64,000 nt of DNA, taken from Candidatus Rifleibacteriota bacterium (GTDB lineage: Bacteria > Muiribacteriota > Ozemobacteria > Ozemobacterales > Ozemobacteraceae). The position numbers were made by a program, and so were the translations under genes. Shown one piece after another: positions 25,933-58,547 of the stretch. The notes under the pieces are model-generated. The model was not told the DNA's origin, did not search any database, and saw only the letters and a program-made list of their open reading frames with translations. Positions within the stretch are counted from its first letter, which is position 1. Each line of letters starts with the position of its first letter. The DNA is taken from assembly GCA_012517355.1 (NCBI GenBank), contig JAAYVD010000112.1, forward strand, positions 2,769 to 66,768. Reading direction: 5' to 3'.

Positions 25933-26111
25933 TCCTCTCGCAGGGATGGATCCACAGGACGGTGGAAGGCAGGCCCCCTTCCACCCGAAGGTGGAACGGA
26001 GATGTTCACCGGAACCTGCGGAACCGATTCGACCTCGTCCGCGGCCACCCGCGTGCCCCCGAGGGCATCCTTTTCCCGTCCGATGTCCCAGGTGCCAGGC
26101 TGGTCAGGGGT

Positions 26112-27224: not shown

Positions 27225-27313
27225 GCTGCCCACGTCGCCCCCCCCTTCTCGCCGGCCGGGGGTGGAGCCGGTCGGCCCCACCCCCGTGGCATGGTCAGGA
27301 CTGAGGTTCCCGG

Positions 27314-30038
<2,725 letters not shown>

Positions 30039-30099
30039 GGGGTTCCTCCGGGTGGATCGTTGGTCGGAGGGCACCTTAGCACGAAAACGGCCAGACGTC

Positions 30100-30129
30100 A
30101 ATTGCAATTCACAAATTGCAGTTCGTCAA
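30100..30129 (-). promoter_or_regulatory. Promoter/operator of the regulator-icd unit
   Basis: TTGACG-17 bp-TGCAAT overlapped by palindrome AATTGCAATT and near-copy AATTGCAGTT. Confidence 0.5.
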
Positions 30130-30307
30130 AAAAAAGGACCTCCCCGACACCGGTTCGGGCCGGTTTCCCGGGAAACGGGAGCACCGGGGCGACGCCGAGG
30201 GCCGGTCGGCCCCAAGCCCAGGCCGGGTTGCCAGAGATTCTGACCGCTGGCCAGGCACCGCCCGACGGCAGGGAAAACGGGAAAGGCGGGGGAAGGGGCG
30301 ACGGGGG

Positions 30308-30676
30308 TCACTCCCCTTTCTGCCGCTTGTACCCGCACTTGCAGAGTTTCTTCGTGCCGAGGTGGCGGGCGCAGTTGGGGCAGAACTCGCTGAGCCGCTT
30401 TTTGGCCGCCTCGCGGGCTTCGAGCTCCTTCGCCTTTTTGAGGAACTCCTCGGGCGACATGGGGGAAAGAGGCTTGGCGGAAGGGGGTTCCTTCAGGTCC
30501 TCGACCTTTTCCGCATAGTCGGGGTTCTCCTTGAGGTAGGCCTTGACCGCGTCGGCCGGAGACAGCCCCTTCTTGTAGAGATGGATATAATCATAAAGGG
30601 GTTCCTCTTCGACCGTCTCGTTGAACAGGCGGACGAACTCCGCCTCCCAGGCATCGATGTCCATGCGCTTGGCCAT
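30308..30676 (-). CDS. Hypothetical protein with C-terminal zinc ribbon
   Basis: 122 aa MAKRMDIDAWE...; CPNC-x9-CKCG; GAGGAGG RBS. Confidence 0.8.
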   Translation of the reverse strand: MAKRMDIDAWEAEFVRLFNETVEEEPLYDYIHLYKKGLSPADAVKAYLKENPDYAEKVEDLKEPPSAKPLSPMSPEEFLKKAKELEAREAAKKRLSEFCPNCARHLGTKKLCKCGYKRQKGE

Positions 30677-30794
30677 GCCAGGCCTCCTCGTTCCTGAACT
30701 GCCGTCCCCGGCCCGGTGACCGGCCCAGTCGGCGATGGGGTGCGATCCCGCAGGCAGGCTACCATCGCCGGAAGCGAGAGTAAAGAAGGGTTTG

Positions 30795-30824
30795 GTGACA
30801 TCGTCGGCAGGGTTCTGGTATGAT
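30795..30824 (+). promoter_or_regulatory. Extended -10 promoter of the signalling operon
   Basis: GTGACA-18 bp-TATGAT with TG extension. Confidence 0.55.
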
Positions 30825-30856
30825 GCTGCCAACCAATGATTGCCAAGGAGGCCGCC

Positions 30857-31186
30857 ATGGAATTCGAGGTCACGACCACCGAGGGACGCCGGATCATCGC
30901 CAGCAAGGGTGATGTGCTGCACACCTGCGCCGAGGAGTTCGCGCGCGTGATCCGCGAGCAGGTCGAGGAAGGCCACCAGGTGATCGTGCTCGATTTCAGC
31001 AAGGCCAGCATGATCGACAGCGCGGGCATCAGTTCCATCGTGGCCAACATCGGCCTGGTCAAGGAACGGAACGCCCGCATCATCCTCGGCGGCTGCAATC
31101 CGACCATCCAGAAGGTGTTCCAGTTGATCGGGTTCAAGCAGCATTTCGCCGTGACCGGTACCCTGGCCGAGGCCCTGAAGGCCTGA
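30857..31186 (+). CDS. STAS-domain anti-sigma-factor antagonist
   Basis: IVLDFSKASMIDSAGISSI, IQKVFQLIG; AAGGAG RBS. Confidence 0.92.
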   Translation: MEFEVTTTEGRRIIASKGDVLHTCAEEFARVIREQVEEGHQVIVLDFSKASMIDSAGISSIVANIGLVKERNARIILGGCNPTIQKVFQLIGFKQHFAVTGTLAEALKA

Positions 31187-31207
31187 CCGGAACGGAGGAG
31201 AAGCCGC

Positions 31208-32404
31208 ATGTTCGCCCTCAAAGGATTTTCCGAATCGGATTTCGAGGTGCTGCGCCGGTATCTGACCCGGCAGACGGCGACCAAGAACCAGGTGTTGATG
31301 GAGGCGGGGAAACCCGCGTTGCAGATGTTCCTCATCGAGGAAGGCTCGGTGAAGATCGTGCAGCGCCCGGCGAAGGATGCCGGCGACGACGTGGTGCTGG
31401 GGGCGGTGAAGGCCGGCGGTTTCTTCGGCGAGGAGGCGCTGCTCGGCGAGCAGCAGATCTACGCCAACACGGCGGTTTCCATGGAGAACACCACCCTGTT
31501 CACCCTGGGCAAGGAAGGCCTGCAGAAGCTGATGGTCGAGGCGATGGGGGTCGGCACCAAGTTGCTGCTGGCGTTGACCAAGTCCTACCGCGAGGCCCTG
31601 GCCACCCCGGAGCAGATGGCGAAGGTGCTGACCTTCTACAGCCCCAAAGGCGGAACCGGCTGCACCACGTTGGCGGTCAGCTTCGCGTGCCAACTGGCCC
31701 GGCTGCGCAAACGGGTGGCCTACATCGACGCCGACCTGCAGTTCGGCAACGTGTCGCTGCTGATCGGGGCCCCACCCGCGCTGCACCTGGCCCGCCTGAT
31801 CCAGAAGGAGACCTCGCTGACCTTCGATCGCATCAAGGGGTACCTCCATCGGAAGCACGAAGTCGACTTCCTCTTTTCCCCCGACCAGCCCCAGGAAGCC
31901 GAGATGATCTCGCGTTCCAACCTCAACCAGGTGCTGCAGGCGATCGGGCGCCAGTATGACTTCATCGTCGTCGACACCTCCTCCCAGATCGACGACCACA
32001 CCCTCCTGCTGTGGGACATGGCCGACGTGCTGGCCCTCGTCACCAACGCCGACCTGCCGGGGCTGACCCGCATGCACCGGCTGTTCAAGGTGATGGGCCG
32101 GTTGAACTATCCCAAGGCCAAGTTCGCCTTGCTGGCCAACCGGTTCGGCGATGGCCAGGAGGCCTGCCTGGCGGAACTGCGCAAGCTGCCGGTGGGCCAC
32201 GTGCAGACCCTGCAGGCAGACCACGCCAACGCCCAGGCGGCCGTCATCGCCGGCGTGCCGCTGGCCCTGCAGGCCCCGGCGTCGCCCGTCACCAAGGCCC
32301 TGGAGGAACTCCTCCGCTACCTGCTGGGCGAGGAGGCGATCGCCCGCTCGCAACAGAAGGGCGGCATCTTCTCGCGGCTGAAAACCCTGATCGCCGGCGC
32401 CTGA
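31208..32404 (+). CDS. Cyclic-nucleotide-binding domain fused to a CpaE/TadZ-MinD-type ATPase
   Basis: N-terminal MFLIEEGSVKI..GGFFGEEALL (cNMP fold); C-terminal FYSPKGGTGCTT, IDADLQFG, YDFIVVDT, GGIFSRL tail. Confidence 0.88.
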   Translation: MFALKGFSESDFEVLRRYLTRQTATKNQVLMEAGKPALQMFLIEEGSVKIVQRPAKDAGDDVVLGAVKAGGFFGEEALLGEQQIYANTAVSMENTTLFTLGKEGLQKLMVEAMGVGTKLLLALTKSYREALATPEQMAKVLTFYSPKGGTGCTTLAVSFACQLARLRKRVAYIDADLQFGNVSLLIGAPPALHLARLIQKETSLTFDRIKGYLHRKHEVDFLFSPDQPQEAEMISRSNLNQVLQAIGRQYDFIVVDTSSQIDDHTLLLWDMADVLALVTNADLPGLTRMHRLFKVMGRLNYPKAKFALLANRFGDGQEACLAELRKLPVGHVQTLQADHANAQAAVIAGVPLALQAPASPVTKALEELLRYLLGEEAIARSQQKGGIFSRLKTLIAGA

Positions 32405-32418
32405 GCTGAGGAACCACG

Positions 32419-33267
32419 ATGAACAAACAGCCGGAGGCGGTCGGGACGGCCGATCGGCCTCTGTCGCTCGGGCAGGGGGTCACCTGGGTCGGCTTCTGGG
32501 ACTCCGAGGCCGGCCTGCGCTGCAATCCCTACCTGGTCTGCGACGGGGACGAGGCGGTCCTGATCGACGGCGGCAGCCGCCCCGACTTCTCGACGGTGAT
32601 GATGAAGGTCTTGCAGGCGGGGGTTTCGCCCCACCAGATCAAGGCCCTCGTCTATTCGCATTTCGACCCCGACCTGTGCGGCAGCCTCCCCAACCTCGAG
32701 GACATGATTCGGCGCCCCGACCTGGTGCTGATCTCGGCCGCTCCCAACCACATGTTCATCCGCCACTACTCGACCACCTCCCGGATGGTCTCCCTGGCGG
32801 AAACCGGGTTCCGGTTCCGGTTCGCCAGCGGGCGGGAACTGCGGTTCACCCCCACCCCGTTCGCCCACGCGCCGGGCAGCTTCGTCACCTTCGACACCGC
32901 CACGGCGATCCTGTTCACCGGTGATCTGTTCGGCAGCCCGGGAGCGGGCGACAGCATCTTCCTGTCCCTGACCCCCACCTGTCACACCGACCACGACCGG
33001 GCCCATTGCCCCGAAGGGCGGGGAACCTGCCCCCTCCATGACCTCGCCCGGTTCCACAAGCAGGTGATGCCTTCGACCCTGGCTTTGCGGCACGCGATGG
33101 CCACGGTGCGCACCATCCCCTTCAAGGCCCTGGCCCCCCAGCACGGGGCGGTCATCCGCGAGGAGAAGGACGCCGAACTGGCGATCCGGACCCTGGAGAC
33201 GCTCGAGAACGTCGGGATCGACGGGGTGGTCGCGCAGGACCCGCAGTTGACCGACCGGAGTTACTGA
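32419..33267 (+). CDS. MBL-fold di-iron protein, ODP/FprA-N-terminal-like (no flavodoxin domain)
   Basis: CNPYL, LIDGG, SHFDPDLCG, PFAHAPG, LFTGDLFG, FHKQVMPS, APQHG. Confidence 0.85.
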   Translation: MNKQPEAVGTADRPLSLGQGVTWVGFWDSEAGLRCNPYLVCDGDEAVLIDGGSRPDFSTVMMKVLQAGVSPHQIKALVYSHFDPDLCGSLPNLEDMIRRPDLVLISAAPNHMFIRHYSTTSRMVSLAETGFRFRFASGRELRFTPTPFAHAPGSFVTFDTATAILFTGDLFGSPGAGDSIFLSLTPTCHTDHDRAHCPEGRGTCPLHDLARFHKQVMPSTLALRHAMATVRTIPFKALAPQHGAVIREEKDAELAIRTLETLENVGIDGVVAQDPQLTDRSY

Positions 33268-33269
33268 CC

Positions 33270-34259
33270 GTGACCGGCCCGATCGACTTCGACGAGATGC
33301 TGGCGAAGGTCGCCCCCGACAACCCGAATCGTTCCTTTCTGCTCAAGAGCCTGATCGAGATCCGCGCGGGCCAGGACGACCAGGCCCTGATGACCAGGCT
33401 GATGACCGGCCTCGTGATGAAATACGCCGAGAGCGAGCGGCAGCTGAACCGGCTCAACGCCGAACTGCGCGAGAAACAGGAGCACCTCGACGCCGACCTC
33501 AAGGCCGCCGCGGTCATCCAGACGGCGCTGCTGCCCAAGCCCCTGCCCGCCGCCTCGAACGTGCGCGCCGCCTGGAAGTTCGTTCCCTGCCAGAGCATCG
33601 GCGGCGACGTGTTCCTGCTCACGCCGCTGGGCAAGCGGTATCTGATGGTGGCCGTCGTCGACATCAGCGGTCACGGGGTACCCTCGGCCATGGTGACCGT
33701 CTCGGTCTGCCAGTTCCTGCAGCCCCAGGCGGGAACGGTCTTCCAGCCCGGGGCCGGCCCCGACGGCGCGGTGGTGCCACCCGGCCAGGTGCTGGCCTCG
33801 CTCGACCGCGAGTTTCCCTATTTCCGTTTCAAGAAGACCTTTTCGATCTTCTACGGCGTGCTCGACCGCGTCACCGGCCGGTTCACCTTCGCCAACGGCG
33901 GGCACCCGCAACCCTTCCTGCAGACCCCCGACGGCGCCCTCACCACCCTCGAGGAGCACGGCCCCATCATCGGCATGGGCCTGGGCTCGACCTTCCCGGA
34001 AGGGTCGCTCACCCTCTCCCCCGGCAGCCGCCTGACCTTCTACTCCGACGGCCTGACCGAATGCCGCAACCCCTCAGGGGAGCTGTTCGGTGACGACCGG
34101 GTGCGCGACCTGCTCGCCGCGCACCACGCCCTGCCCCTCCCCGACCTCGCCGCCGCGATCCATGCCGGGGCCAGCAGATTCGTGGCGGGAGCGGGTTTTC
34201 CCGATGACTTCACCCTCGTCCACCTGGAGTTCGCCGGCCCGCCCGCCTCCCCCGCTTGA
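33270..34259 (+). CDS. PP2C/SpoIIE-type (RsbU-like) serine phosphatase
   Basis: AAVIQTALLP, IGGD, DISGHGVPSA, ANGGHP, YSDGLTE, DDFT; short coiled-coil N-terminus. Confidence 0.93.
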   Translation: MTGPIDFDEMLAKVAPDNPNRSFLLKSLIEIRAGQDDQALMTRLMTGLVMKYAESERQLNRLNAELREKQEHLDADLKAAAVIQTALLPKPLPAASNVRAAWKFVPCQSIGGDVFLLTPLGKRYLMVAVVDISGHGVPSAMVTVSVCQFLQPQAGTVFQPGAGPDGAVVPPGQVLASLDREFPYFRFKKTFSIFYGVLDRVTGRFTFANGGHPQPFLQTPDGALTTLEEHGPIIGMGLGSTFPEGSLTLSPGSRLTFYSDGLTECRNPSGELFGDDRVRDLLAAHHALPLPDLAAAIHAGASRFVAGAGFPDDFTLVHLEFAGPPASPA

Positions 34260-37141
34260 GGGACGGCGACCAGCAGCACGTCCCCGCCATGGTCACCGCC
34301 ACGCCAGCGGCATCGCCGGGGATGTTTCCTCAGACGGCCTTCCCCCACCCCTCCGGCACGGTTCGGCAGTTCGTCGCCGCCCGGTGGGAGTTGCAGGGAA
34401 CCGGTGGGAAACCGCCCCAACACCCGCGAGATCCGGGCCGCCCGGCGACCCGGGTCAGTGGCCCCGGCCGGCCGTGGCCGGAAGCGGGTTTATGGCGTGC
34501 GGGCTGGCTGGCCTTGTCACTGGTGTGCCTGATCCTGCTGGCCGACCCCGCCCTCGTCGCGGCTGCCGAAGGCCGGGGAACGGAGGGGGACCAACTGCAG
34601 ACCGGTCCCTGGTGGGGCATCGGGCCGCTGGCGGCGACCGCCTCGCCGGCCGGTCTGCTCTCTTCAGCGGGCAGGCCAGACCCGGGGCGTGATCATCCCG
34701 GCCGGGACGGCCCGACGCGCTGGCGCGAGGTTCCCGCCTGGGCCGACCCCGGGGAGATCCACGACGTGGCCGGAGAACTGGCCACGGGCAACGGCCCCGC
34801 CTCGGCCGCGGCTTTCCAGGTTCTCTCCAGCCCGGCCGGCGGCGAGGCCTGGTGGTATGTCAGCGCGGACGACCTGTTCGAAGGCTGGGTGAACGGGGAA
34901 CGGGTGGCCTGGCAGGACCGGCCCCTGGACTGCCGGCCCCGGCGACGGGCGATCCGGATCCGCTTGCGCCCGGGGGCCAACACGGTCTTCCTGGCCCTGG
35001 CGAACGTCGATGGGCGTTTCTGCTTCGCCAGCACGTTCGAGGCCATCCCCGACCTCCCCGGGGAGGTGGTCCGGCTGCGGCGGACCATCGGGCGGTGGCC
35101 CCGCGTGTTCGACCGCGAGGCCGCCCTGGCACTGCTCGGGTATCTGCGGGGAACCCCTCTGCCGGAGTCGGCCTTTCCCTATTACGATTCGGAGTTCATG
35201 CGGTCGATGACCGAACCCGGCGAAGAGATCGGGCGGCTGCAGGACGACCTGGACCAGCCGGGGACCGGGGCCCTGCGTCCGTCGAGGTTGTTCCGGCTGG
35301 CGGAGGTCATTCGCGACGCCGGGTTGGCGGAAGAGGCGTCGACCTGGCTGCTCCACCTTCTGGCCGGGCGATTCGCGGCCTCTCTCGCGGGCGTGGCCGG
35401 GGGGACGGTCCCAGGCAGGGATCCGGCGGGGAAGGCCGTGGGGGCGGACGGCCCCTCGGCGGGGCGCGAAACGGATGATTCGCGCCGCCATCCGTGGGGG
35501 CAAAGGGGCCCTTCCGACATCGGGCCGGTCGACCCCCTGGTTGGGCGTGAGCGGGGTGGCACGCCCCGCCAACCGGGGCGCGGAGGGGACCCGGACGAGA
35601 TGGGGCCGGACCGGACGGCGGCGGATTTCGGCCCGGTCGTACAGCAGACGCCCTGGCTGCTGGCGGGACCGGGGGCCGACCTGACGCGGGCGGTGGCCGC
35701 CAGTCTGCTGGGGCCGGACGGCACCGTCGACTGCCGCCGCCCCCTGCCGGGTCTCGCCGGCCAGAGGTCAGACTCCCTTCCCGACCCTCGACCGGATCGG
35801 CCCCTTCGCGATGCCCGAAGCGGGCGTTTCGCGCCGCCATCCGTGGCGACCAAGGGGCCCTTCCGACATCGTGTCGGTCGGCCCCTTTGCGGTGCGCGAA
35901 ACTGGCGTTTCGCGCCGCCATCCGTGGCGGCAAAGGGGCCCTTCCGACATCGTGTCGGTCGGGACGAGGGAACGGAGCCGGGGGCGGGCGCCGAACGCGC
36001 CCGGGGTGCGGATTCCTGGCGGTTGGTGGCCTCCTGGACGACGGAGACGGGGCCCCACGACATCGCCGACGTGGTAGCCGGGCCGACCGACGGGCAGGCG
36101 GTCCTGCTCACGCGGACGCTCTTCGCCTCCGCCGAGGTGGACGCCTGGGTCTTCCTGGCCGCCGACGACTGGCTGGACGTCTGGCTCAACGGCCGCCACC
36201 TGTTCGCCCCCAACGGGCGGCCCAGCGCCTTCCTCCCCCGCCAGCAGGTGGTGAAGGTGCGTTTGCGGCGGGGGGTGAACCCTTTGCTCCTGCGGGTCGA
36301 GAACCATGCGGGGGCCTGCGCCTTCGCCCTGGAGGTGCATCCGCTGGCCGACTGGCCGGCGCGGAGCGCTCGGCTGGTCCGGCTCATCCGGTCGTTTCCG
36401 CCCGCCTTCGACCCGGACCTGACCGCCGGGGTGCTCCCCTTTCTCGCCTGGCCGCGTCTTCCCCGTCGCCTGGCGGACGCCTATCGCGAGCTGACCTTCC
36501 ACCCGATCGCCGACCCCGAGGCGGAGATCCGGTTCCTGCAGCAGGCGCTGCGCACCGCGACCGAGCCGATAGCCCTCGATGCCGCCCGGTTCCGCCTGGC
36601 CGAACTCTGCGGGCAACTCGGACTGGGTGGGATCCTGGGGCGGCACCTGCGGTCCCAGCGGGACCGGGCCGGACTCGACGGGCCCCGCCTGTGGCGCGGG
36701 GCGCTGGCGGTGTTCCACTCCGGCCGGTTCGCCGAGGGGATCGGGGAGCTCCAGCGGGTGGCGGACCTGTTCCCGGAACTGGGGGCCGCCCGCCTGGGCC
36801 TGGCCGAGGTGCTCTCCTGGAGGGCCTGGCAGACGCTGGATTACCGGGTGCGGGACCAGGCCTGGGAGGCCTGGCAGCGGGTGGACCGGGCGGACCGCGC
36901 CCGACCGGCCGCCCTGGCCGCCCAGGCCGGCCTGTGGTACCTGTTCGCCCGGAAGGACACGGCCAACCGGTGGTTCGAAGCCGCCCTGCGGGCTGACCCG
37001 CGGAACCTGTCCGCCTGGCTGACCCGGTGGGAGGTCCGCTCACCCTTTCCCGACCAGGCGGCGGAAGGGGCCTATCTGCGGGAGTTCGCGGTCTGGGACG
37101 ACCGGACCGCCCGCGAATGGTACCGGGAGATCGAACCGTGA
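34256..37141 (+). CDS. Exported hypothetical protein: two copies of a beta-sandwich (ADD..W-x-NG) plus helical module, C-terminal TPR; start uncertain
   Basis: YVSADDLFEGWVNGE..IRLRPGAN repeated as FLAADDWLDVWLNGR..VRLRRGVN; signal-like WLALSLVCLILLA; 4-bp overlaps with both neighbours. Confidence 0.7.
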   Translation: MRDGDQQHVPAMVTATPAASPGMFPQTAFPHPSGTVRQFVAARWELQGTGGKPPQHPRDPGRPATRVSGPGRPWPEAGLWRAGWLALSLVCLILLADPALVAAAEGRGTEGDQLQTGPWWGIGPLAATASPAGLLSSAGRPDPGRDHPGRDGPTRWREVPAWADPGEIHDVAGELATGNGPASAAAFQVLSSPAGGEAWWYVSADDLFEGWVNGERVAWQDRPLDCRPRRRAIRIRLRPGANTVFLALANVDGRFCFASTFEAIPDLPGEVVRLRRTIGRWPRVFDREAALALLGYLRGTPLPESAFPYYDSEFMRSMTEPGEEIGRLQDDLDQPGTGALRPSRLFRLAEVIRDAGLAEEASTWLLHLLAGRFAASLAGVAGGTVPGRDPAGKAVGADGPSAGRETDDSRRHPWGQRGPSDIGPVDPLVGRERGGTPRQPGRGGDPDEMGPDRTAADFGPVVQQTPWLLAGPGADLTRAVAASLLGPDGTVDCRRPLPGLAGQRSDSLPDPRPDRPLRDARSGRFAPPSVATKGPFRHRVGRPLCGARNWRFAPPSVAAKGPFRHRVGRDEGTEPGAGAERARGADSWRLVASWTTETGPHDIADVVAGPTDGQAVLLTRTLFASAEVDAWVFLAADDWLDVWLNGRHLFAPNGRPSAFLPRQQVVKVRLRRGVNPLLLRVENHAGACAFALEVHPLADWPARSARLVRLIRSFPPAFDPDLTAGVLPFLAWPRLPRRLADAYRELTFHPIADPEAEIRFLQQALRTATEPIALDAARFRLAELCGQLGLGGILGRHLRSQRDRAGLDGPRLWRGALAVFHSGRFAEGIGELQRVADLFPELGAARLGLAEVLSWRAWQTLDYRVRDQAWEAWQRVDRADRARPAALAAQAGLWYLFARKDTANRWFEAALRADPRNLSAWLTRWEVRSPFPDQAAEGAYLREFAVWDDRTAREWYREIEP
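35450..35530 (+). repeat. 81-bp repeat copy in-frame within CDS
   Basis: ggcccctcggcggggcgcgaaacggatgattcgcgccgccatccgtgggggcaaaggggcccttccgacatcgggccggtc. Confidence 0.9.
35799..35960 (+). repeat. Two tandem 81-bp repeat copies in-frame within CDS
   Basis: Units 35799-35879 and 35880-35960; peptides RPLRDARSGRFAPPSVATKGPFRHRVG and RPLCGARNWRFAPPSVAAKGPFRHRVG. Confidence 0.95.
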
Positions 37142-40100
37142 CCCGCGCGGCTCCCCCGGGCACCGCCCCGGTCGTTCCCCCGGTCGCTTCCCCGGTCGCT
37201 TCCCCGGTCGTGTCGCCTTCCGCTTCCCCGGACACGCGCCTGGGCGTTTCCCCGGCCGACTCCCCGGCCCCCCTCCAAGCGCCCACCGCTGTGGACGCCC
37301 CCGCCGCGTTCCCGGCGGACCTGTCCCCGCTCCCGACCGACCCGTCGTCGGCCGGCGCCCCGGGCGGCCCGGGGCGGGGGAACGGGCCGCCGGTTGCGGA
37401 CCGGGCCCAGGGGTCCCCGCCCCGCGGGCCGCGCGCCGCCTGGATCTCACTGGTCATGAACTGGGGGGTCCCGTTCCTGCTGAGTCTGCTGCCGCTGGTG
37501 GTCCTGCACCTCGCGGCCGGAGAGGAGCAGGCCAGGCGCGGAGCGGATGCGCGCCGGGAGCGGCGGGAACGGGTCCGCCTCCAGGCCGACCATCTGCGCC
37601 GGGCCTCGTCCTTCCCGTTCTGGGCCGAGCGGGCCGCCCGCCTGCTCAAGCGGGGCGCCCTGGCCGGGCTGGCCGGGACCCAAAGCCGGGGGCAGAACCC
37701 CGGCCACGCCGCCGCCCCGCCCCACACCGGGGACGTCTCCGGAATCGGCCCACCCCCAGCCAAGGGCGAAGCGGCCGTGCCGATCCGTCATCCGTGGCCC
37801 CCACCAGGAGATCCTTCAGACATCGGGTCGGGTGGGACGGGCCATTTCGGCGGACCGCGGTCGCCCCCTTCCCCAACCGGAACCGCCGCCACTCCCGACC
37901 CCTCATCGGCCGAAATCGGGAGGCCGGTCGGGGTGCCGTTTTCCGGCGGGCGGCCAGGCCGGTTCCTCGTGCCCACCCCCGCCCCGGGAGGCGGGCCGGC
38001 AACCAACCGCGCCGGGGTGGCGGAAGCTCTGGCCAGGGGCCTGGGGACGGCCCTGCGTCGCCTGCAGAGATCGGAACCCCGGCCAGGGGCGGCCACGCCG
38101 TTTCGCGGCAGGCGGGGCGGCCAGGGCATCCTGCCGACCTCTGAGCGGTCGAACCTGGCGGGGTGCCAGGTATGGGCCGTTGCCTTTCCCACCGGGAATC
38201 CGGCCGAGGGGGTGGAACCCTGCCGGGCCCCTCCCCTCCGCCAGGATTTCTCCGCCCTGATGACCGGCCTGTTGCAGGACATCGGCCGGCAGCAGGCGAT
38301 CGAGGCGGAGGAGGGAAAGGCGGCGCGCCACGCCGGGGGGGGCAAGAATGACGAGAGCGGTGGGGGAAGCGAGAGGCCGGCCGGGCCGTTCGACGCCACC
38401 CGGCTGCGGAGGCTGGAGGCAGGCTTCGGTGAGGGGTTGTCCGCCGACCTGTTCACCGGCAGCCACCGCGGAACCGGCTTTCCCGTGCTGTTCCGCGGAA
38501 TTCCCCACATCATGGTCTGGGACCTCGTCTTCTTCCGGGAACGGACGGTCGGGGCCTTCCTGGTGCTGCTGCCGCTGCCCGACGAGGCCGGCCACGCCGC
38601 GCTGCAGTTGACCCTGCGGTACTGGCCGAAAGGCGGGTTCCGGCCGGCGTTTCTGCCCATGCCGACCGAGCGGCGGGGGATCCTGCCTCCCCCCCTGCTC
38701 CACCCCGACCTGGTCCGGGCCCCCGTCCTGGCCGACATCGAGCGGCTTCGTCGCCAGATGCGGATCTGGCAGCCGGCCGGCACCCGGTTCGAGGGCACCC
38801 GGGTGGGGCTGCTGGCCCCCTTCACCGGCCGGCTGGTCCGGTTGCCGGCCGCCGCGGGATGGTGGGGCATGGTCACCCCCCTCGATCCGCTGACGGGACA
38901 CCTGGGACTGCTGGTCGGACGCTTTCCCGACCTGCCCCCCTCCGCCCTGGATCTGTTCCGCGGGATGGCCGACATGGCCTGGATCTTCGTCTGGATCATG
39001 GTCGCCATCCGGGCCGCCCTGGTGGGGACGCGCCCGGCCGGCGTCCGGCGTCAGGCCACCCTGTGGCTGCTCGGCGTCACCGGCATGCCGGTGGTGCTGG
39101 GGATCATGGTCGGCGTCCAGCTGAACGGAGACCTGCGTTCCAACCGGCTCGAGCAGCTCGAACGCGACCTGGAACGGGCGATGGGCGACCTGGAGACCGG
39201 CGCCAACCGGCTCAACGACCGCATCGTCCAGCAGTGCAAGGAGCGGTTCCATGAGGGGGGGTTCCGGGCGGCCCTGCGGCAGGCCATCGCCAACCCAGCC
39301 GCCCGGGAAGGGTTCCTGCGCGACCTGGCCGCGGGCTTCCGGCGGCACGGGCTGCCCATCTCGGGCCTCCGGGTGATGGGACGGGACGGCCAGGCCATGG
39401 AATCCTTCGCGCCCTGGCTGCGGCAATTGTCCATCCGGCAGCTGCAGGCAAGCCTGCAGGATGCCTGGGACCTGTATCTCGCCGGGCCCGATGGGGGCCG
39501 GAAAAGGCCGACCACCACCCTCGCCAGGTGGCAGCAGAACGTCTTTGCCGTCAAGGGGGCCGAGGAACAGCCGCTCGCCTGGCAGTCGGGCAACCGCAAG
39601 TTCTTCCTCTGGCGGATGATCATACAGGAGAAGGGCCGGCCGTTCTGCCAGGTGGCGGTGGTCTGGAGCCACGAGAAGCTGTACCGGGCCTACCTCGAGC
39701 GGGCGGTGCAGGGACCGGGGCTGTTCTCCGGCCGGACCGACCTCTCCCTGTCGGTCTATCTGCCGCAGGGGGACGACCTCGAGGAGGTTGGTGCCTCCGC
39801 CAATCTGGTGGCCGGGCGCGAGGATCTGCGGCGAGTGGCCCGGGCAGCGGTGCGGGCGAAGATGCGCCGGATCACGGAGGATGCCCTGACGGTGGGTTTC
39901 CCGAGCGAGCGCCTGCCGGGCTACGTCTTCCTGGGCCAGGCGTCGCTCGCGCCCCTGCGGGCGGAGCTGTGGCGGGAATGGCTCGGCATCGGCATCGTCA
40001 CCCTCGGGCTGTTCGCCCTCGTGCTCGCGGCGGCGCGGCTGCTGGGGTTCCGGCTGGCCGCGCCGGTGGTGCGCATGACCGCGGAACTGCGGCGGGTGGC

Positions 40101-43100
40101 CGCCGGAGACTACGCGGCCCGGGTCGGCGACGACCGCCGGGACGAGCTGGGACAGGCCGGCCGGGCGCTGGACCGCATGACCGGCTGGCTGGCCGAGCGG
40201 CAGGAGATGAGCCGGTTCGTCTCCTCCCAGGTGCTGGACGTGGTGGCCGCCGGGGACTACCGGGGGGCCATGGCCGGCACCCAGCGCGAGGTGGCGATCC
40301 TGATCTCGGACATCCGGTCGTTCACCACCCTGTCGGAGGAGCATCCGGCCCGGGATATCTTCGCCCTGGTGAACGGGCACATGGAGGCCATGACCCGCGC
40401 CATCCAGGCGGAAGGCGGGATGATCGACCGGTTCGTCGGGGACGCCGTGCAGGCGGTCTTCTACGCGGCCGAGGCCGGAACGCCGGGGGTGGGCGGCCCC
40501 GCCGACCGCGCGATCCGGGCGGCCCGGGCGATGCGCAAAGCGCATCTGGCCAGGATCGAGGCCCGCCGGCGGGAAGGGTTGTTCCCCTACGAGATCGGCA
40601 TCGGCATCGAGCAGGGAACGGTGGTGGCCGGCGTCATGGGCGACGGGCAGGCCCGGCTGGACTTCACGGTGCTGGGAGAGCCGGTACAGGCCGCGGCCGA
40701 ACTGGAAGCCGGCTCGAAGCACGGCACCGCCACGAAGATCATCGTCTCCGACCTGGTCAGGCAGACCGTTGGCGAGAGTGTCCCGTGCCGCCGCCTGCCC
40801 GACGGCCACCCCGGCTGGGAACTCGCTTCGCTCGAGGAGGGCGCTCCCCCCGCCTCCCCCGCCTCCCCCGCCGTCCCCCTTCCCGATCCCGCCCCCATCA
40901 CGCCAGCCCGGCCTCCCCGCCTCCCCCGCCCTGATCCCCCCACCTTCCCATCCGCCCACCACCGCACCTCCCACCTTCCCTCCCTCGCAAGGCCATCATC
41001 TCCCCAACCCGCCACGCTCCCCGCGCCTCACCCCCCGCCTCCCCACCTCGCCGCCTCCCCCTTTCCCTCCTACGGCGGCCTGCTTCCCCTGCTGGTTCTG
41101 TGGCTGGTGCCCGCCGGCCTCCTCTTTCTCGGGGCGGCGGCCCTGCGACAGGCGGGAATCCGCCAGGCGATCGGCGAGGCGAGGGACCAGGTGCGGGAAC
41201 GCCTCGGCCGGCTGGAGGGGGAGATGCGGCCGGAAACCCTGGCGGCAAGGCTGCTCGCCGGAATCGTCATCGGGGCCGGCCACCCTCGCCGGGGAACGCC
41301 GGCCGGCCCTCTGAACCCGGAGGAAGCCAACCGCCTCGGACGGGCGTTGGCCAGCGCCAACGCGAAATCTGCCGGCGCGGCGACGACGGCCAGGCCGGGG
41401 AGGCCGTCATCCGGCCGCTTTTTCGTCCTCTCCGCCCCCGCCGACATCGATCCGGGATCGGCGTGGGGGACCGAATACATGCCCAGGATCCGGCCCGCCC
41501 AGGTGCGGCTCCTGTTCCAACGCGCCCGGGGCGACTTCCCCCTGAGCCTCGACGAGGTCCGCCGATTCGCCACGATCCTCCTCATGATGGAGATCGACCC
41601 CCTGTTCACCCCCAATCGCTCCTATTTCCGCCTGTCCGACTGGTTCTACCGGTGGTTCCAGCGCTTCTTCGTCGGGCCTCGCGGGGGAGCCATCGGCCAC
41701 CACGGGTTCATCCGCAACGCCCTGCTGTCCCGCGGCAACCTGCTGCCGATGCGCTTTTGCGAAAGCGACTGGCTGATGTTCTGGCTGCCGGTCAGGCGGC
41801 AGCCCGGTGCCGGTGATGGCGGAAACCGGACCGCCCAGGAGGGGCCGGGAACGGACCGGGGACTCCCGAGAACCGGCGGCACTGGCCTCTCAGCCCGTTC
41901 AAGCCGGGATGAGGGGGATCCTGACGGGGACGGGCCCCGCCCGGAGGAAGCCCGCCAGGGGGGCATCAGCCAGGCCACGGTCATCGGAAGCGGATCGCCC
42001 GGGGCAATCCCCGCCGGCACCCCGCCAGGGCCGTACTCCCCGCCAGCCGGGGACCGGGCGGCTGCCGCGGAGGGGCCGGTGGCGGGGCTGGTATTGGCTT
42101 TCCTGCCCGGCAAGGGGCTGGCACCCGAGGCCGGCTACCGATTCCTGGCCCAGGACCTGGCCCGCCAGGGGTTTCCCGCCGCGATCGCCTGGAAGGCCGG
42201 TCGGAGACGCCGCCTCGTCCGCACGGGGGCCTTCCGGAAAGCAGGGCTGTCCGCACAAGAACCGGGCGACGCACCATTCACGCTCGAGGAGCGGGCGGGG
42301 TGGGTGGTCGGGTCGCAGGTGTCGGGGGGGCTCCGCCCCGCCCGGGTGTTCCTGGCCCGGGATTGGCACCGGCACCTGCCGTGGTCGGCACACCTGGGGA
42401 CAGCGGGGATCCTGGCCGCCGGGGGTTGGCTGCTGCTCGGGGGCTGGACGGTCTGGCGGCTGGGCCGTGGCGAACGCGGGGCCCCGGCCTCGTTGCGGGG
42501 CCTGCTGATGGGAACCTTCGCCCTGGTGGTGGTTCCCACCCTGGCCGTCGGGTTCTTCGGGGTCGAGCGGTCGCTGCTGGAGCGGGCCACCCGGCTGCGG
42601 GCCGACCGGGCCCGCGACCTGACCGACCTCCTGGCGGCGGTCGACCGCAGCCAGGACCTGGCCCTCACCTTCGCCTGCAACCTTGTGGCGACCCAGCTCG
42701 ACCGGCCGGAGTTCCTGGCCGACCTGGCCCGGTTCGAGAAAGGATGGCCACCACCCGACCGCCCCGATGCCCCGCCTCCGATGCGCTCCCTCCTGGTGGC
42801 CTGCCAGTTCCTGGGGCTGTGGCCGCGGGCCGCCGAACTGGTGTCGGTCACCGGCCTGACCGGCGGCAGCGGGCACGACCAGCGGTTTTTGGAAGCCCTG
42901 CGGTGGTTGTGGAACCGCAACCTGTCCGCCCGGCACGCCGCGGCGGGGGCCGACCTTCCCGTCTCGCAGCGGCGCGCGAACCTGGTGGTGGGGACCCAGG
43001 TGGAGGAGTTCGGAACGATCCTCCGCAGCCTGATGCCTCCCGCGGGTCTCGCGGCCTGGATGAGCGCGCCCCGCGCGGTGGTGTCGGTCAGCTCCTCTCT

Positions 43101-44448
43101 GGAGGAGCCCCAGTTCTTCTCGACCCACCACCTGCGCCGGGACGGCATCCCCACCTGGATCGCCGAGGTACAGTTCTCCCAGGGGCCTCTCCTGCGGCTC
43201 GCCCTCGAAGACTGGGACCGGTATCTGGCCCTGGCCCCCCACCCCGGATGGCGGATCGGCGTCTCCAAGCGGACGTTTCCCGGATGGCGGCTGGTCTCCC
43301 CCTTCGTATCGACCGACTGGGAACCGGGTCCGAAACCGGCCGACCCAGGCTTCTACCGGCAGACCCCGACCGTTCGGGGCGAGGAACCCCGAACGACCCT
43401 GCTCTGCCGGATGGCCGCCGAGGGCGGGCGGCCCGCCATCGTCCTTCCCGAGAGACGGGCGACCGGTCGGCTGTTCGCCGCCACGCCGGGTGGGGGGCCC
43501 GGCAACCTGCTGTTCTACGGCTCCCTGCCGGCGGCGGCCATCTTCGACGAGGCCGAAACCCAGGCCGCCGGCCAGCGCGGGCTCCTGCTGGCGCTGGCCG
43601 TCCTGGCCGCCCTGCTGGCCGCCGGCGTGGCCGAGGCCTTCCTGCAGCCGCTGCTCGCCCTGGCCGCGGCCGCCCGCCGCCTGATGGGGCGCGAGTTCAC
43701 CGCCCGCGTGCCCCAGGACCGGGACGACGAGTTCGGCCACCTGGCCACCGCCTTCAACGAGATGGCGGCCGGGGTCGAACAGGGGCGGCGGCTCCGGCGG
43801 TTCGTCTCCGACTCGGTCCGCGTCGCGGCCGGGAACCGCGACCGCGCCGCCGCCGCCCGGGCCGGTGAGCACCGGGAGGCGGTCGTCCTGTTCGCCGGCC
43901 TCGGAGGGTTCAAGCCCCTGCTGCACACCGTGCCGCCCACCGCACTGGTCGCCGACCTCAACCGGTTCCTGGCGGGCGCGGCGGCCGCGGTGCGGGCCGA
44001 GGGCGGCGAGATCGACAAGTTCATCGGCGAAAAGGTGCTGGCCGTCTTCCACCCCGACCGCTTCGGGTCGGCCACCGCCGCCCTGGCCGCCGCCCTGCGC
44101 GCGGCGACCCGTCTGGCCGAAGACACCCGCGCCCTGCCGGCCTGGCGCGACCACCCGGTAGGCATGGGCCTGGTGGCGGGGAAGGTCCTGGCCGGCATCC
44201 TGGGCACGGCCGAGGTGCGCCTGGAATACACCGTCCTCGGCGATACCGTCAATCTCGCCGCCCGACTGTGCGACCTCGCGCTCCGGGAGGGCGGCGGCCT
44301 GGCCGTCGAGCAGGAGTCGCTGGCGCGGGCGGACGCCCTGGCCGACCCCCGGTTCCGACGGCTGGGCGGGATCGCCCTCAAGGGCAAGACCCGCACCGTC
44401 GACTGCTGGCTGGCCCCGTCCCTCGGCCGGCCGGCCGGAACCAGGTGA
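37138..44448 (+). CDS. Giant membrane class III adenylate/guanylate cyclase with two TM-HAMP-cyclase halves
   Basis: GTG overlapping upstream TGA; HAMP (RRDELGQAG; RDDEFGHLATAFNEM); cyclase motifs ISDIRSFTTLSE/DRFVGDAV and DKFIGEKV/YTVLGDTVNLAARL; about 4 TM per half. Confidence 0.9.
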   Translation: MTRAAPPGTAPVVPPVASPVASPVVSPSASPDTRLGVSPADSPAPLQAPTAVDAPAAFPADLSPLPTDPSSAGAPGGPGRGNGPPVADRAQGSPPRGPRAAWISLVMNWGVPFLLSLLPLVVLHLAAGEEQARRGADARRERRERVRLQADHLRRASSFPFWAERAARLLKRGALAGLAGTQSRGQNPGHAAAPPHTGDVSGIGPPPAKGEAAVPIRHPWPPPGDPSDIGSGGTGHFGGPRSPPSPTGTAATPDPSSAEIGRPVGVPFSGGRPGRFLVPTPAPGGGPATNRAGVAEALARGLGTALRRLQRSEPRPGAATPFRGRRGGQGILPTSERSNLAGCQVWAVAFPTGNPAEGVEPCRAPPLRQDFSALMTGLLQDIGRQQAIEAEEGKAARHAGGGKNDESGGGSERPAGPFDATRLRRLEAGFGEGLSADLFTGSHRGTGFPVLFRGIPHIMVWDLVFFRERTVGAFLVLLPLPDEAGHAALQLTLRYWPKGGFRPAFLPMPTERRGILPPPLLHPDLVRAPVLADIERLRRQMRIWQPAGTRFEGTRVGLLAPFTGRLVRLPAAAGWWGMVTPLDPLTGHLGLLVGRFPDLPPSALDLFRGMADMAWIFVWIMVAIRAALVGTRPAGVRRQATLWLLGVTGMPVVLGIMVGVQLNGDLRSNRLEQLERDLERAMGDLETGANRLNDRIVQQCKERFHEGGFRAALRQAIANPAAREGFLRDLAAGFRRHGLPISGLRVMGRDGQAMESFAPWLRQLSIRQLQASLQDAWDLYLAGPDGGRKRPTTTLARWQQNVFAVKGAEEQPLAWQSGNRKFFLWRMIIQEKGRPFCQVAVVWSHEKLYRAYLERAVQGPGLFSGRTDLSLSVYLPQGDDLEEVGASANLVAGREDLRRVARAAVRAKMRRITEDALTVGFPSERLPGYVFLGQASLAPLRAELWREWLGIGIVTLGLFALVLAAARLLGFRLAAPVVRMTAELRRVAAGDYAARVGDDRRDELGQAGRALDRMTGWLAERQEMSRFVSSQVLDVVAAGDYRGAMAGTQREVAILISDIRSFTTLSEEHPARDIFALVNGHMEAMTRAIQAEGGMIDRFVGDAVQAVFYAAEAGTPGVGGPADRAIRAARAMRKAHLARIEARRREGLFPYEIGIGIEQGTVVAGVMGDGQARLDFTVLGEPVQAAAELEAGSKHGTATKIIVSDLVRQTVGESVPCRRLPDGHPGWELASLEEGAPPASPASPAVPLPDPAPITPARPPRLPRPDPPTFPSAHHRTSHLPSLARPSSPQPATLPAPHPPPPHLAASPFPSYGGLLPLLVLWLVPAGLLFLGAAALRQAGIRQAIGEARDQVRERLGRLEGEMRPETLAARLLAGIVIGAGHPRRGTPAGPLNPEEANRLGRALASANAKSAGAATTARPGRPSSGRFFVLSAPADIDPGSAWGTEYMPRIRPAQVRLLFQRARGDFPLSLDEVRRFATILLMMEIDPLFTPNRSYFRLSDWFYRWFQRFFVGPRGGAIGHHGFIRNALLSRGNLLPMRFCESDWLMFWLPVRRQPGAGDGGNRTAQEGPGTDRGLPRTGGTGLSARSSRDEGDPDGDGPRPEEARQGGISQATVIGSGSPGAIPAGTPPGPYSPPAGDRAAAAEGPVAGLVLAFLPGKGLAPEAGYRFLAQDLARQGFPAAIAWKAGRRRRLVRTGAFRKAGLSAQEPGDAPFTLEERAGWVVGSQVSGGLRPARVFLARDWHRHLPWSAHLGTAGILAAGGWLLLGGWTVWRLGRGERGAPASLRGLLMGTFALVVVPTLAVGFFGVERSLLERATRLRADRARDLTDLLAAVDRSQDLALTFACNLVATQLDRPEFLADLARFEKGWPPPDRPDAPPPMRSLLVACQFLGLWPRAAELVSVTGLTGGSGHDQRFLEALRWLWNRNLSARHAAAGADLPVSQRRANLVVGTQVEEFGTILRSLMPPAGLAAWMSAPRAVVSVSSSLEEPQFFSTHHLRRDGIPTWIAEVQFSQGPLLRLALEDWDRYLALAPHPGWRIGVSKRTFPGWRLVSPFVSTDWEPGPKPADPGFYRQTPTVRGEEPRTTLLCRMAAEGGRPAIVLPERRATGRLFAATPGGGPGNLLFYGSLPAAAIFDEAETQAAGQRGLLLALAVLAALLAAGVAEAFLQPLLALAAAARRLMGREFTARVPQDRDDEFGHLATAFNEMAAGVEQGRRLRRFVSDSVRVAAGNRDRAAAARAGEHREAVVLFAGLGGFKPLLHTVPPTALVADLNRFLAGAAAAVRAEGGEIDKFIGEKVLAVFHPDRFGSATAALAAALRAATRLAEDTRALPAWRDHPVGMGLVAGKVLAGILGTAEVRLEYTVLGDTVNLAARLCDLALREGGGLAVEQESLARADALADPRFRRLGGIALKGKTRTVDCWLAPSLGRPAGTR

Positions 44449-44693
44449 CGAAGGCGGCGCCGGAAGCCATCTTTCCCGCCTGGGGCAAGGTGGCTGCACT
44501 GGCCATCGGCGCCTGCTGGCGGCGGAGGGCATCCTGCCCTCTTGCCCCGCCTTGCCCCCATGGAGCCCGGGAGCGCGCCACGGCGGAGATCCTGCCGCCG
44601 GGGATTCACAGCGGCAGAACCGTCAGACCTCCGGTTCCAGAAGGTCCGTGAATCCGCCTGGCCGTGAAGACAGGATTCCGGAGCCCGACCCGT

Positions 44694-44924
44694 TCAGGGT
44701 GCCGCCGGGGCGGGAAGGTTCGACCGACCGGCCTCGGCGCTCGCCGCCGGGACCGGCGCGGGGCTGGGGGCCTGCCCATTCCGGGCCGTGATCGACCACA
44801 GCGTCTGGGTGACCACCGCCAGGCTGCTCTGGGAAAGAACAATCGACAGGACGAAGGCGAACACGAAGCACCAGAACGCCTGCCCGATCAGGATCAACCG
44901 ACGGTACCGTTCCAACTGGCTCAT
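44694..44924 (-). CDS. Small single-TM hypothetical protein
   Basis: 76 aa with hydrophobic LILIGQAFWCFVFAFVLSIVL; GAGAGGA RBS. Confidence 0.5.
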   Translation of the reverse strand: MSQLERYRRLILIGQAFWCFVFAFVLSIVLSQSSLAVVTQTLWSITARNGQAPSPAPVPAASAEAGRSNLPAPAAP

Positions 44925-45114
44925 GCAGTCCTCTCATGCGGCCGCCAAGGCCGGATTCCCGCGACACGCAGCCTTCCGCCCCGCTGGCGCGAAGCCGGAA
45001 AGGTGGCCCGGGGTCGCGGTCCGGACCATCGGCTTCCCTCATCGGCAGGTTTCCACGTTCATCCAACCCCCTCCGCCCCGATGGGCCCGCAACTACCCGA
45101 TTCCACCGGGCAAA

Positions 45115-45196
45115 GGGCCCTTTGCATGGCGCAAACGGGTGGTTCCCGCCGCCATCCATGGCGACGAGTGGGAATGGCCGGTCTCGCGTCGGTCGG
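45115..45196 (+). repeat. Degenerate 81-bp repeat copy (intergenic)
   Basis: gggccctttgcatggcgcaaacgggtggttcccgccgccatccatggcg...cgcgtcggtcgg. Confidence 0.7.
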
Positions 45197-45228
45197 TGCA
45201 AGTGGCCGGTCGGGGGGACCCGGGGTGG

Positions 45229-47675: not shown

Positions 47676-47891
47676 GCCGATATCAGCTTCCGGTGCGGGT
47701 TACATCGGGACTGGACGCCATGGTTCCGGCCGCCTCCTCGGGAAGTGCATCCCCCTGTTGCCAAAAGGGGATGGATCTATGTACTATATACCTGTCGGGT
47801 GACCGGCGCGTCCAGTTTAGCCTGGCCGGCCACCATGAAGGCCAAGAGGACCAGGTCACCCCCGACAGAGGCGGGGAAAGGAAGACACGGA

Positions 47892-48389: not shown

Positions 48390-48403
48390 CCCGGCGGGCC
48401 GCA

Positions 48404-48432
48404 TTGACGGCCACCCCCCTGGTTGCTATCCT
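48404..48432 (+). promoter_or_regulatory. Sigma70 promoter of the TPR-glmS unit
   Basis: TTGACG-17 bp-TATCCT with TG extension. Confidence 0.7.
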
Positions 48433-48506
48433 GGGCCGGAGTCCTCCTGCCGATGGTAGGAAGAGAACACGGGGATTCCCGTGAATTCGTTCGTTCCCGG
48501 GAGGGC

Positions 48507-50156: not shown

Positions 50157-50187
50157 CCATCCTCCCCCACGAAAGGACCCCCACCCC

Positions 50188-58463: not shown

Positions 58464-58547
58464 CGGCCCGCCGGGGACCCGCCAGCCACCCGGGTCCATC
58501 CGGAGCGGGTCCGTGGTCACCCGGCCGCCGACGGGTGCTCCCCCGGG

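Follow-up and report, generated by a model that had tools for sequence, protein, structure and literature searches.

Among the described systems closest to the locus reported here are partner-switching modules such as RsbU-RsbV-RsbW and SpoIIE-SpoIIAA-SpoIIAB, sensor proteins of the ODP (oxygen-binding di-iron protein) family, and ATPases such as MinD and FlhG, which have a C-terminal membrane-targeting helix. The locus lies in a 64,000-nucleotide stretch of a Riflebacteria metagenome-assembled genome (MAG) and encodes, in order, a STAS protein, a fusion of a cNMP-binding-like domain with a MinD/ParA-type ATPase, an ODP, a PP2C phosphatase, a 961-amino-acid (aa) protein and a tandem class III cyclase. 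The ODPs of Treponema denticola and Thermotoga maritima are sensor subunits of chemoreceptors, as Muok et al. reportedly described in PNAS in 2019. Citing passages in PMC6978683 and PMC7319448 present ODP as a sensor subunit that binds a chemoreceptor and place ODPs in operons with various signal-transduction genes. For the Vibrio vulnificus stressosome, the relevant passages of PMC9237108 describe a haem globin domain of RsbR that senses O2 within a large RsbR:RsbS complex. As for cyclases, a 2022 review states, in the part that bears on this point, that fused dimeric class III enzymes are unknown in bacteria (PMC9552081), and no later description of bacterial fused cyclases was found in the full-text literature searched.

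We read the locus as a conserved four-gene module of the Ozemobacteraceae, made of two separable pairs (STAS-ATPase and ODP-PP2C), to which two large genes were added at the 3' end in this species; we regard the chances of this reading as about even. The stretch analysed (G000:C8:2769-66768, hereafter the window) belongs to a 7.1-Mb MAG that is 96% complete and congeneric with "Candidatus Ozemobacter sibiricus." The genus genomes compared were the MAG itself (G000), a sister species (G001, 88% complete, with locus proteins 90 to 93% identical to those of the window), the nearest named relative, "Ca. Ozemobacter sibiricus" BY5 (G002, 66 to 75% identical), and G003.

Gene order points to a conserved four-gene unit

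All six open reading frames (ORFs) lie on the forward strand. They encode the STAS protein (30857-31186; 109 aa; Pfam STAS, E = 3.4e-15), the cNMP_binding and P-loop ATPase fusion (31208-32404; 398 aa; cNMP_binding, 7.4e-14, with AAA_31/CbiA/MipZ), the ODP (32419-33267; 282 aa; PF19583, 1.8e-50), the PP2C (33270-34259; 329 aa; SpoIIE, 4.7e-40), the 961-aa orphan (34256-37141), which has no Pfam or NCBIfam match, and the tandem cyclase (37138-44448; 2436 aa; two HAMP and two Guanylate_cyc domains). The gaps between them are 21, 14, 2, -4, and -4 nucleotides (nt), the last two of which hinge on the choice of TTG/GTG starts, and third-position GC is high (0.82 to 0.92) in all six frames. Upstream of STAS, a sigma-70-like scan finds a promoter-like site on the same strand (GTGACA-18-TATGAT with an extended -10 TG, 30795-30824), followed by a ribosome-binding site (AAGGAGG, ~30845-30851). 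It is the one such site in 16.5 kb (29500-46000), against 0.4 ± 0.6 in shuffles, and TTCTGGTA of its -10 region is invariant in all four genus genomes while the surrounding DNA has diverged. Terminator-like sites are not above chance (8 against 6.8 ± 2.6 expected), and none is intergenic, all lying within genes; at the cyclase 3' end, folding is no better than in shuffles (z = -1.0) and there is no T-tract. A preliminary description of this DNA had already reported six ORFs in one orientation, with the gaps and the promoter-like site found here. Its proposal of a single transcription unit beginning upstream of STAS is supported by relatives in which the order and tight spacing of STAS, ATPase, ODP, and PP2C are kept (35 to 92% identity).

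With the ATPase as query, orthologs (35 to 92% identity), either complete or cut off by a contig end, were found in 14 of 40 relatives, all of them in family f1. STAS lies directly upstream of the ATPase at all 14 orthologous loci, found by tblastn at 12 and by Pfam at the other two (G023 and G015); the copy in G014 is partial and contains masked bases. Thirteen of these loci are informative further downstream, since the G003 contig stops within the ATPase gene, and at seven of them (G001, G002, G008, G019, G007, G023, and G015) ODP and PP2C follow. A metagenome scan of 80 loci contained six orthologs, and the four-gene order is present in all four that have downstream DNA.

The 961-aa ORF and the cyclase behave differently. 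Neither has a match beside the module in G002, G008, G007, or G015, each covered for 7 to 14 kb downstream, or in the four metagenome contigs. After PP2C, the order in G002 is DUF2225 (opposite strand), TPR, GlmS, and MutS2, and this matches the window from 46431 to 54648 (DUF2225, 46431-47699; TPR, 48408-50156; GlmS, 50044-52020; MutS2, 52048-54648). The segment 34256-46554 is therefore a 12.3-kb insertion relative to "Ca. Ozemobacter sibiricus." It holds the 961-aa ORF, the cyclase and, at its far end, an ADP-ribosylglycohydrolase gene on the reverse strand that is convergent with the cyclase (45229-46554; Pfam, 2e-55). In G001, the contig stops 287 nt after PP2C; this remaining stretch matches the start of the 961-aa ORF, with indels in frame, and a cyclase ortholog (82%) is on a 2.7-kb contig. 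G001 probably shares the insertion.

As judged from gene order, the conserved unit is the first four genes only, and the two giant downstream genes appear as recent additions in the species. They are probably cotranscribed with the module here, yet lie outside the conserved system. The preliminary description had treated all six genes as one unit and named neighborhood conservation among its checks. That check separates them: STAS-ATPase-ODP-PP2C stays together, the 961-aa ORF and the cyclase are unlinked from it in all eight informative relatives, and synteny shows the insertion. A six-gene "composite cyclic AMP (cAMP) pathway" would at most be a species-level add-on.

The other flank of the module also differs between genomes. 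BrkB is directly upstream of STAS in G002, and in G000 a monomeric isocitrate dehydrogenase gene, a MarR-like gene, and a 123-aa ORF intervene (24580-30679), so a second rearrangement flanks the module. Within the window, a stand-alone pyruvate-kinase barrel-domain gene adjoins a gene for a cNMP-binding protein (57770-59573, reverse strand); a similar barrel-domain gene directly follows the module PP2C in G007 and G019 (L044:6010-6984; L043:5993-6811).

ODP and its presumed outputs are linked by an N-terminal motif

The ODP scores 172 bits against a PF19583 cut-off of 27.2 and aligns to the solved ODPs 6qrq (5.3e-21) and 6qnm. The HxDxD, H, GD, FH, and QHG positions, which we take to be the metal ligands, are kept, and the protein is probably a di-iron O2/iron sensor. 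At residues ~188 to 210 (window ~32980-33050) it carries a Cys/His-rich insertion, TPTCHTDHDRAHCPEGRGTCPLH, that is absent from 6qrq and 6qnm and common to all 18 aligned output-linked ODPs. Most of these show the pattern C-x2-C-x8-C-x6-C-P, with the second Cys replaced by Asp or His in the Ozemobacter genus, and the insertion may form an extra metal or Fe-S site. The adjoining PP2C matches SpoIIE at 138 bits (cut-off, 25) and consists of a helical motif within residues 1 to 72 (33270-33485), a coiled-coil linker, and the PP2C domain (residues 123 to 321).

Across 32 ODP loci from species-representative genomes, the gene directly downstream of ODP encodes a PP2C at 14 loci (Riflebacteria and Desulfobacterota), a small histidine kinase at 3, a GGDEF protein at 4, and an HD-GYP protein at 6, so that 27 loci have one of these four outputs; the remaining 5 have no class assigned (contig end, broken ODP, or not examined). 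Proteins of all four output classes open with an N-terminal helical motif of ~45 residues, LLxY..a..D..i...LLK.LV.KY..lE..L..LN. A profile of this motif built from 13 non-PP2C outputs and run against 57,225 six-frame ORFs of G000 returned the window PP2C as its best match (E = 2.4e-6) and a 330-aa cyclase on contig C6 as the second (2e-4), with the next at E = 1.5. Against 1.84 billion representative proteins, a 21-sequence profile gave 100 matches at E ≤ 1e-3, with the motif at or near the N terminus in nearly all of them. Pfam content was read for the 48 matching proteins of at least 180 aa, the other 52 being shorter: SpoIIE is found in 19, HisKA in 14, GGDEF in 8, and HD, Guanylate_cyc, ODP, and PAS in 1 each, with unrelated or no domains in 3. 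In all, 43 of the 48 carry SpoIIE, HisKA, GGDEF, HD, or cyclase domains. Seven N-terminal pieces scanned at E values up to 1 shared no Pfam family for the motif. ODPs group by output class on a tree, with five changes, the minimum possible, against a mean of 14.3 in shuffles; kin sharing labels is a caveat here. One 284-aa protein, P0105, combines the motif (residues 3 to 67) with a partial ODP domain (107 to 253) and is either a fusion or a gene-call artefact.

The C6 cyclase extends this pattern to another enzyme. A second G000 ODP (46% identity) lies directly downstream of this motif-bearing class III cyclase (C6 ~31966-33769; L051:6966-8772), and G014, G006, and G018 keep this pair as well. 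The pair would amount to an adenylate cyclase under O2/iron control. By the same pattern, ODP-PP2C is a predicted sensor-output pair. The logic of ODP, PP2C, and STAS that had been sketched for the locus is supported, with ODP as a general sensor partner of adjoining signaling enzymes.

STAS is paired with a MinD/ParA-type ATPase

The STAS protein is single-domain and of the anti-sigma-antagonist type, scoring 47.1 bits against TIGR00377, under the cut-off of 53.45. Ser55, in the motif IDSAG, is invariant in all 13 aligned rows and is its putative phosphorylation site. Elsewhere in the window, a 122-aa ORF on the reverse strand (9070-9435) weakly matches the module-STAS profile (E = 5.7e-4, 21 bits) and has no Pfam match at 1e-5.

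In the ATPase, Pfam and NCBIfam place a cNMP-binding-like domain, i.e., not a receiver-like one, ahead of a MinD/ParA-type ATPase domain. The Walker A motif is deviant (PKGGTGCTT) and has the signature Lys of KGG. In an alignment of 15 orthologs and paralogs, this Lys (K147) is nearly invariant, with Arg in two paralog rows, and the DxD residues D174 and D176 and the Walker B residue D262 are invariant. The protein ends in KGGIFSRLKTL, which looks like an amphipathic helix. The tail is conserved as KGGIFSRLKSL in 13 rows out of 15; the other two (L045 and L047) stop short of it. Best among solved relatives are the ParA-family protein 3ea0 (3.6e-25) and MinD 6riq (5.6e-22); FlhG and FleN rank behind these two and ahead of the far weaker TadZ 3fkq (9.6e-9). 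The N-terminal domain passes the Pfam cut-off, and its cassette, FFGEEALLGEQQIYANTAV, has no phosphate-binding Arg, a residue that is missing from all 15 rows. Five other cNMP-binding domains of G000 keep this Arg (RSA or RNA), among them those of the candidate kinase described below and of a paralog on C160 that is not linked to STAS. The ATPase was also considered as a BY-kinase-like STAS kinase and rejected as such, its Walker A Lys not being conserved. A complex prediction for the ATPase and STAS returned a score of zero and no verdict, and it is evidence neither way.

The STAS-ATPase pairing recurs in a paralogous lineage (G000 C22 and G008 C63) whose ATPase likewise lacks the Arg. At both loci examined, a PAS-PP2C-HATPase_c_2 fusion lies within 5 kb of the pair, which independently ties this type of pair to partner-switching enzymes. 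The loci (L048, G000 C22 ~91700-98860; L049, G008 C63) read STAS, ATPase, an opposite-strand HDOD gene, and then the fusion; G000 has a second STAS, and in G008 an ion-channel gene is interposed.

A candidate kinase lies outside the window

No HATPase_c_2 Ser kinase or anti-sigma factor was found among the window ORFs scanned. A scan of 35 window ORFs for RsbW, sigma-factor, and Tad families matched none, in line with the preliminary description. Genome-wide, HATPase_c_2 is matched 23 times in G000 (15 times over the cut-off) and STAS 24 times, and tblastn gives at least 41 other PP2C-like high-scoring segment pairs. One relative is informative here. In G023, a gene divergent from the module STAS (L046:3212-4531) encodes an RsbW-like kinase (HATPase_c_2) in fusion with a canonical cNMP-binding domain that keeps its Arg; this is the only genome with a kinase adjoining STAS among the scanned loci. 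The G000 ortholog (39%) is unlinked (C120:14706-15929). On its domain content, the fusion is a candidate cAMP-controlled STAS kinase. No sigma factor was found near the scanned loci, save an unrelated one 6 kb downstream in G014.

Two loci of Desulfobacterota show a comparable arrangement around ODP-PP2C. In Desulfobacter curvatus DSM 3379 (L059:2556-7868), an operon for STAS, an RsbW-like kinase, and three TPR proteins runs divergently from ODP-PP2C, and in a Desulfarculia MAG (L062) ODP and PP2C are followed by STAS and TPR proteins. The TPR proteins at these loci may be the outputs. A poorly resolved STAS tree carried no signal of co-inheritance with ODP-PP2C across phyla.

The downstream cyclase resembles a fused C1/C2 enzyme

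The tandem cyclase is built of two modules, each with about four predicted transmembrane helices, two large periplasmic regions, a HAMP domain, and a class III cyclase domain (CHD1, ~40249-40797; CHD2, ~43834-44445; both on the forward strand). A hydropathy scan gave seven clear segments; an eighth (aa ~1765 to 1785) is below threshold and was added by eye. The database gene call is 2330 aa long, implying an ATG at 37456, and the coding signal begins near 37150. In class III cyclases, two complementary sets of residues meet at a dimer interface to make up the active sites. When the catalytic domains were aligned to the solved cyclases CyaB 3r5g, CyaC 1wc0, and OaPAC 5x4t, the six key positions read D, R, D, T, Q, and E in CHD1 and G, K, E, T, N, and R in CHD2. 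CHD1 thus keeps both metal-binding Asp residues, with Arg in place of the substrate Lys, Gln in place of Asn, and Glu in place of Arg, and CHD2 has Gly and Glu at the Asp positions and keeps Lys, Thr, Asn, and Arg. From these complementary sets, the chain should form one catalytic and one degenerate site, like mammalian C1/C2, and the tandem cyclase is a predicted single-chain, C1/C2-type pseudo-heterodimer. The same division of residues is present in all 12 two-domain ORFs of more than 1,500 aa in G000 and in all 24 complete database homologs; three further homologs are truncated or split. Where database homologs of the window cyclase carry names, these are Ozemobacteraceae or Riflebacteria. 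G000 has 71 ORFs with a cyclase domain in its 7.1 Mb, so the adjacency of one of them to the module is weak evidence of a functional link.

The 961-aa ORF between PP2C and cyclase was first described as an exported TPR protein. It does have one N-terminal hydrophobic segment (aa 78 to 105); the TPR label comes from the features of language-model neighbors only, without a Pfam or NCBIfam match. Two paralogous halves (aa ~150 to 380 and ~580 to 961; 30% identity, E = 4e-21) are separated by ~600 nt of weak coding signal. Apart from the internal duplicate, homology searches with the ORF turned up a single weak match, of 100 aa, in G008, and neither half was found in G001 to G003. Three in-frame copies of a dispersed repeat of ~73 to 80 nt lie inside the ORF, between the two halves (35463-35966). 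The repeat has an internal palindrome (GCGCGAAAC..GTTTCGCGC), further copies in the window at 19093-19150, 60069-60139, and 65228-65296, and 343 blastn-short matches spread over 96 contigs; 213 of these matches reach 60 nt or more. Contig depth is 252x at the repeat and ~7x in its flanks. Contigs from DNA sequencing confirm the sequence and the repeat. One of them, from another study, is identical to window 35272-35889, so the insertion is not an assembly artefact of one sample.

A proposed route from oxygen and iron to partner switching

Built on the observed domain identities, conservation pattern, shared motif, and catalytic-residue patterns, the protein-protein steps and the output that we propose for the four-gene module would run as follows. 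The ODP would sense O2 and/or Fe(II) and control the PP2C via the N-terminal helical motif and coiled-coil linker of the latter. The PP2C would then dephosphorylate Ser55 of STAS, and the unphosphorylated STAS could bind a partner, for which we propose the co-encoded MinD/ParA-type ATPase. This STAS-to-ATPase step is one that we infer; alternatively, STAS might target an unlinked kinase, or the ATPase and a kinase both. The ATPase would cycle on the membrane via its putative C-terminal amphipathic helix. The Ser kinase would be encoded elsewhere, the RsbW-like fusion with a canonical cNMP-binding domain being one candidate. In a bolder version, Ozemobacteraceae use a new kind of partner switch: ODP gates PP2C via the coupling motif, and the target that STAS controls is not a sigma factor but a membrane-cycling ATPase, perhaps by way of the latter's Arg-less domain. 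In this species, the operon would also have captured a member of a family of fused C1/C2-type cyclases that may be the first of its kind in bacteria. We consider this version possible, if on the doubtful side.

Several observations weigh against a four-gene module acting in this way. Neither a kinase nor a sigma factor, nor any other defined output, is encoded in the window. Each pair also occurs without the other, with unrelated genes following STAS-ATPase at 6 of the 13 informative loci (G018, G006, G014, G004, G010, and G005), and three of these six genomes without ODP-PP2C hold only the other, cyclase-paired ODP. Desulfobacterota, conversely, have ODP-PP2C without the ATPase, and in a tree of poor resolution the STAS proteins beside it group with other STAS paralogs (95/92), apart from the module STAS. 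With a STAS and PP2C repertoire as large as that of G000, cross-talk and chance adjacency are real possibilities. Finally, the nucleotide cycle of the ATPase is uncertain because the canonical Walker A Lys (GK[ST]) is replaced, by Cys in the window protein and with C, N, R, K, or A at this position in orthologs.

The separability of the pairs and the size of the repertoire could mean that two independent modules lie side by side, with ODP-PP2C acting on another of the ~24 STAS proteins or on a non-STAS substrate, and STAS-ATPase served by enzymes encoded elsewhere. The lack of a co-inheritance signal between the module STAS and the Desulfobacterota loci would fit. Such independence is unlikely, given that the four-gene order is kept with gaps of ~2 to 120 nt in seven genomes and four metagenome contigs over ATPase identities of 35 to 92%, that the conserved promoter is found only upstream of STAS within the genus, that STAS adjoins ODP-PP2C at the two Desulfobacterota loci, and that STAS proteins are textbook substrates of SpoIIE/RsbU-type PP2Cs. 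Alternatively, the ATPase could be a bystander with an unrelated positioning role, while STAS sequesters an unlinked RsbW-type kinase or anti-sigma factor and the output is transcription. This would be the canonical mode of STAS action in a genome with many HATPase_c_2 proteins, and the kinase gene beside STAS in G023 is in keeping with it. STAS-ATPase adjacency is, however, the most conserved feature of the locus, found at all 14 loci and again in the paralogous lineage, and with the G014 gene as the lone sigma factor near the scanned loci we hold a bystander role to be quite improbable.

The preliminary description favored a composite pathway of all six genes, with the cyclase and a putative cNMP receptor in one unit. 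Spelled out, the cyclase would make cAMP on periplasmic signals with help from the 961-aa protein, the cNMP-binding ATPase would be the receptor, and CpaE-like localization would be the output. The genes do share one strand, with short or overlapping junctions and no terminator-like site between them; in G001, PP2C is directly followed by DNA with homology to the start of the 961-aa ORF, and this genome has the 82% cyclase ortholog; and the second ODP, paired with a motif-bearing cyclase, links ODP and cAMP in this lineage. Other evidence makes this pathway very improbable. The cyclase and the 961-aa ORF were not found beside the module in four genomes and four metagenome contigs, synteny with G002 shows an insertion, and this cyclase is one of 71 in the genome. 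The phosphate-binding Arg, which five other domains of the same genome retain, is missing from the proposed receptor in 15 of 15 rows, so that a cyclase and its cNMP receptor in one unit are not borne out. Nor is a CpaE/TadZ role in polar pili supported: T2SSE, TadB/C, and secretin families are missing from the window, none of the 32 T2SSE matches of G000 is on the window's contig, a CpaE-like and CpaF-like gene pair is on C13, and the ATPase is nearer to ParA and MinD than to TadZ.

Comparison with known systems

If our reading of the four-gene module is correct, it would connect O2/iron to a partner-switching cascade, by a route that can be tested, in a phylum without cultured members, and a STAS-ATPase partnership, if true, would extend partner switching from transcription and cyclic di-GMP control to spatial or membrane ATPases. 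The N-terminal motif appears to plug one sensor, ODP, into five outputs (PP2C, histidine kinase, GGDEF, HD-GYP, and class III cyclase) and would illustrate modular signal wiring in compact form; as no Pfam family covers it, it could also serve as an annotation handle. The combination of genes had been put forward as one that is not a described system, and we found no description of it in the literature searched, a body that excludes the neighborhood tables of Muok et al. 2019, which may list ODP-PP2C pairs. Novelty is greatest in the coupling motif and the fused cyclases, and the module itself varies on known kinds of system.

Like the chemoreceptor ODPs, the window ODP belongs to the same Pfam family, keeps the motif positions, and is encoded beside its presumed signaling partner. 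That partner is a PP2C instead of a chemoreceptor, the subfamily of the window has the Cys-rich insertion, and its outputs share an N-terminal motif that is not in Pfam. As in RsbU-RsbV-RsbW and SpoIIE-SpoIIAA-SpoIIAB, the STAS of the locus is a single domain that keeps the conserved Ser, and its PP2C, of the SpoIIE type, carries a regulatory region at the N terminus and a linker that forms a coiled coil; the locus differs in that the operon has no kinase, anti-sigma, or sigma factor and that the constant companion of STAS is a MinD/ParA-type ATPase. The V. vulnificus stressosome, as far as the passages of PMC9237108 describe it, likewise feeds an O2 signal into a STAS-based system linked to iron metabolism. 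The sensor proposed here is a separate di-iron protein paired with a phosphatase, and no RsbR/S/T genes are present.

The ATPase shares with MinD, FlhG/FleN, and TadZ/CpaE a deviant Walker A motif with the signature Lys, the DxD motif, and the Walker B Asp, and its conserved C-terminal basic-hydrophobic tail may be a counterpart of the MinD/FlhG helix; its structure neighbors TadZ/CpaE also combine a regulatory domain with an ATPase. It departs from all of them in the replaced canonical Walker A Lys, in an N-terminal domain that is cNMP-binding-like, and in a gene context free of Min, flagellar, or Tad genes. The tandem cyclase resembles the mammalian membrane adenylate cyclases, as portrayed in the relevant part of PMC9552081, in having two membrane modules and two class III domains per chain, with the Asp pair in the first domain only and Lys, Thr, Asn, and Arg in the second only. 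It differs in having ~2 x 4 predicted transmembrane helices, four large periplasmic regions, and HAMP linkers, compared to 2 x 6 transmembrane helices in the mammalian enzymes. Being bacterial, and apparently confined to Ozemobacteraceae/Riflebacteria, it probably arose independently. The tandem cyclases would run counter to the review's statement that bacteria have no known fused class III cyclases of dimeric type, and, with their HAMP domains and periplasmic sensor regions, could provide a prokaryotic model for why mammalian cyclases are linked pseudo-heterodimers.

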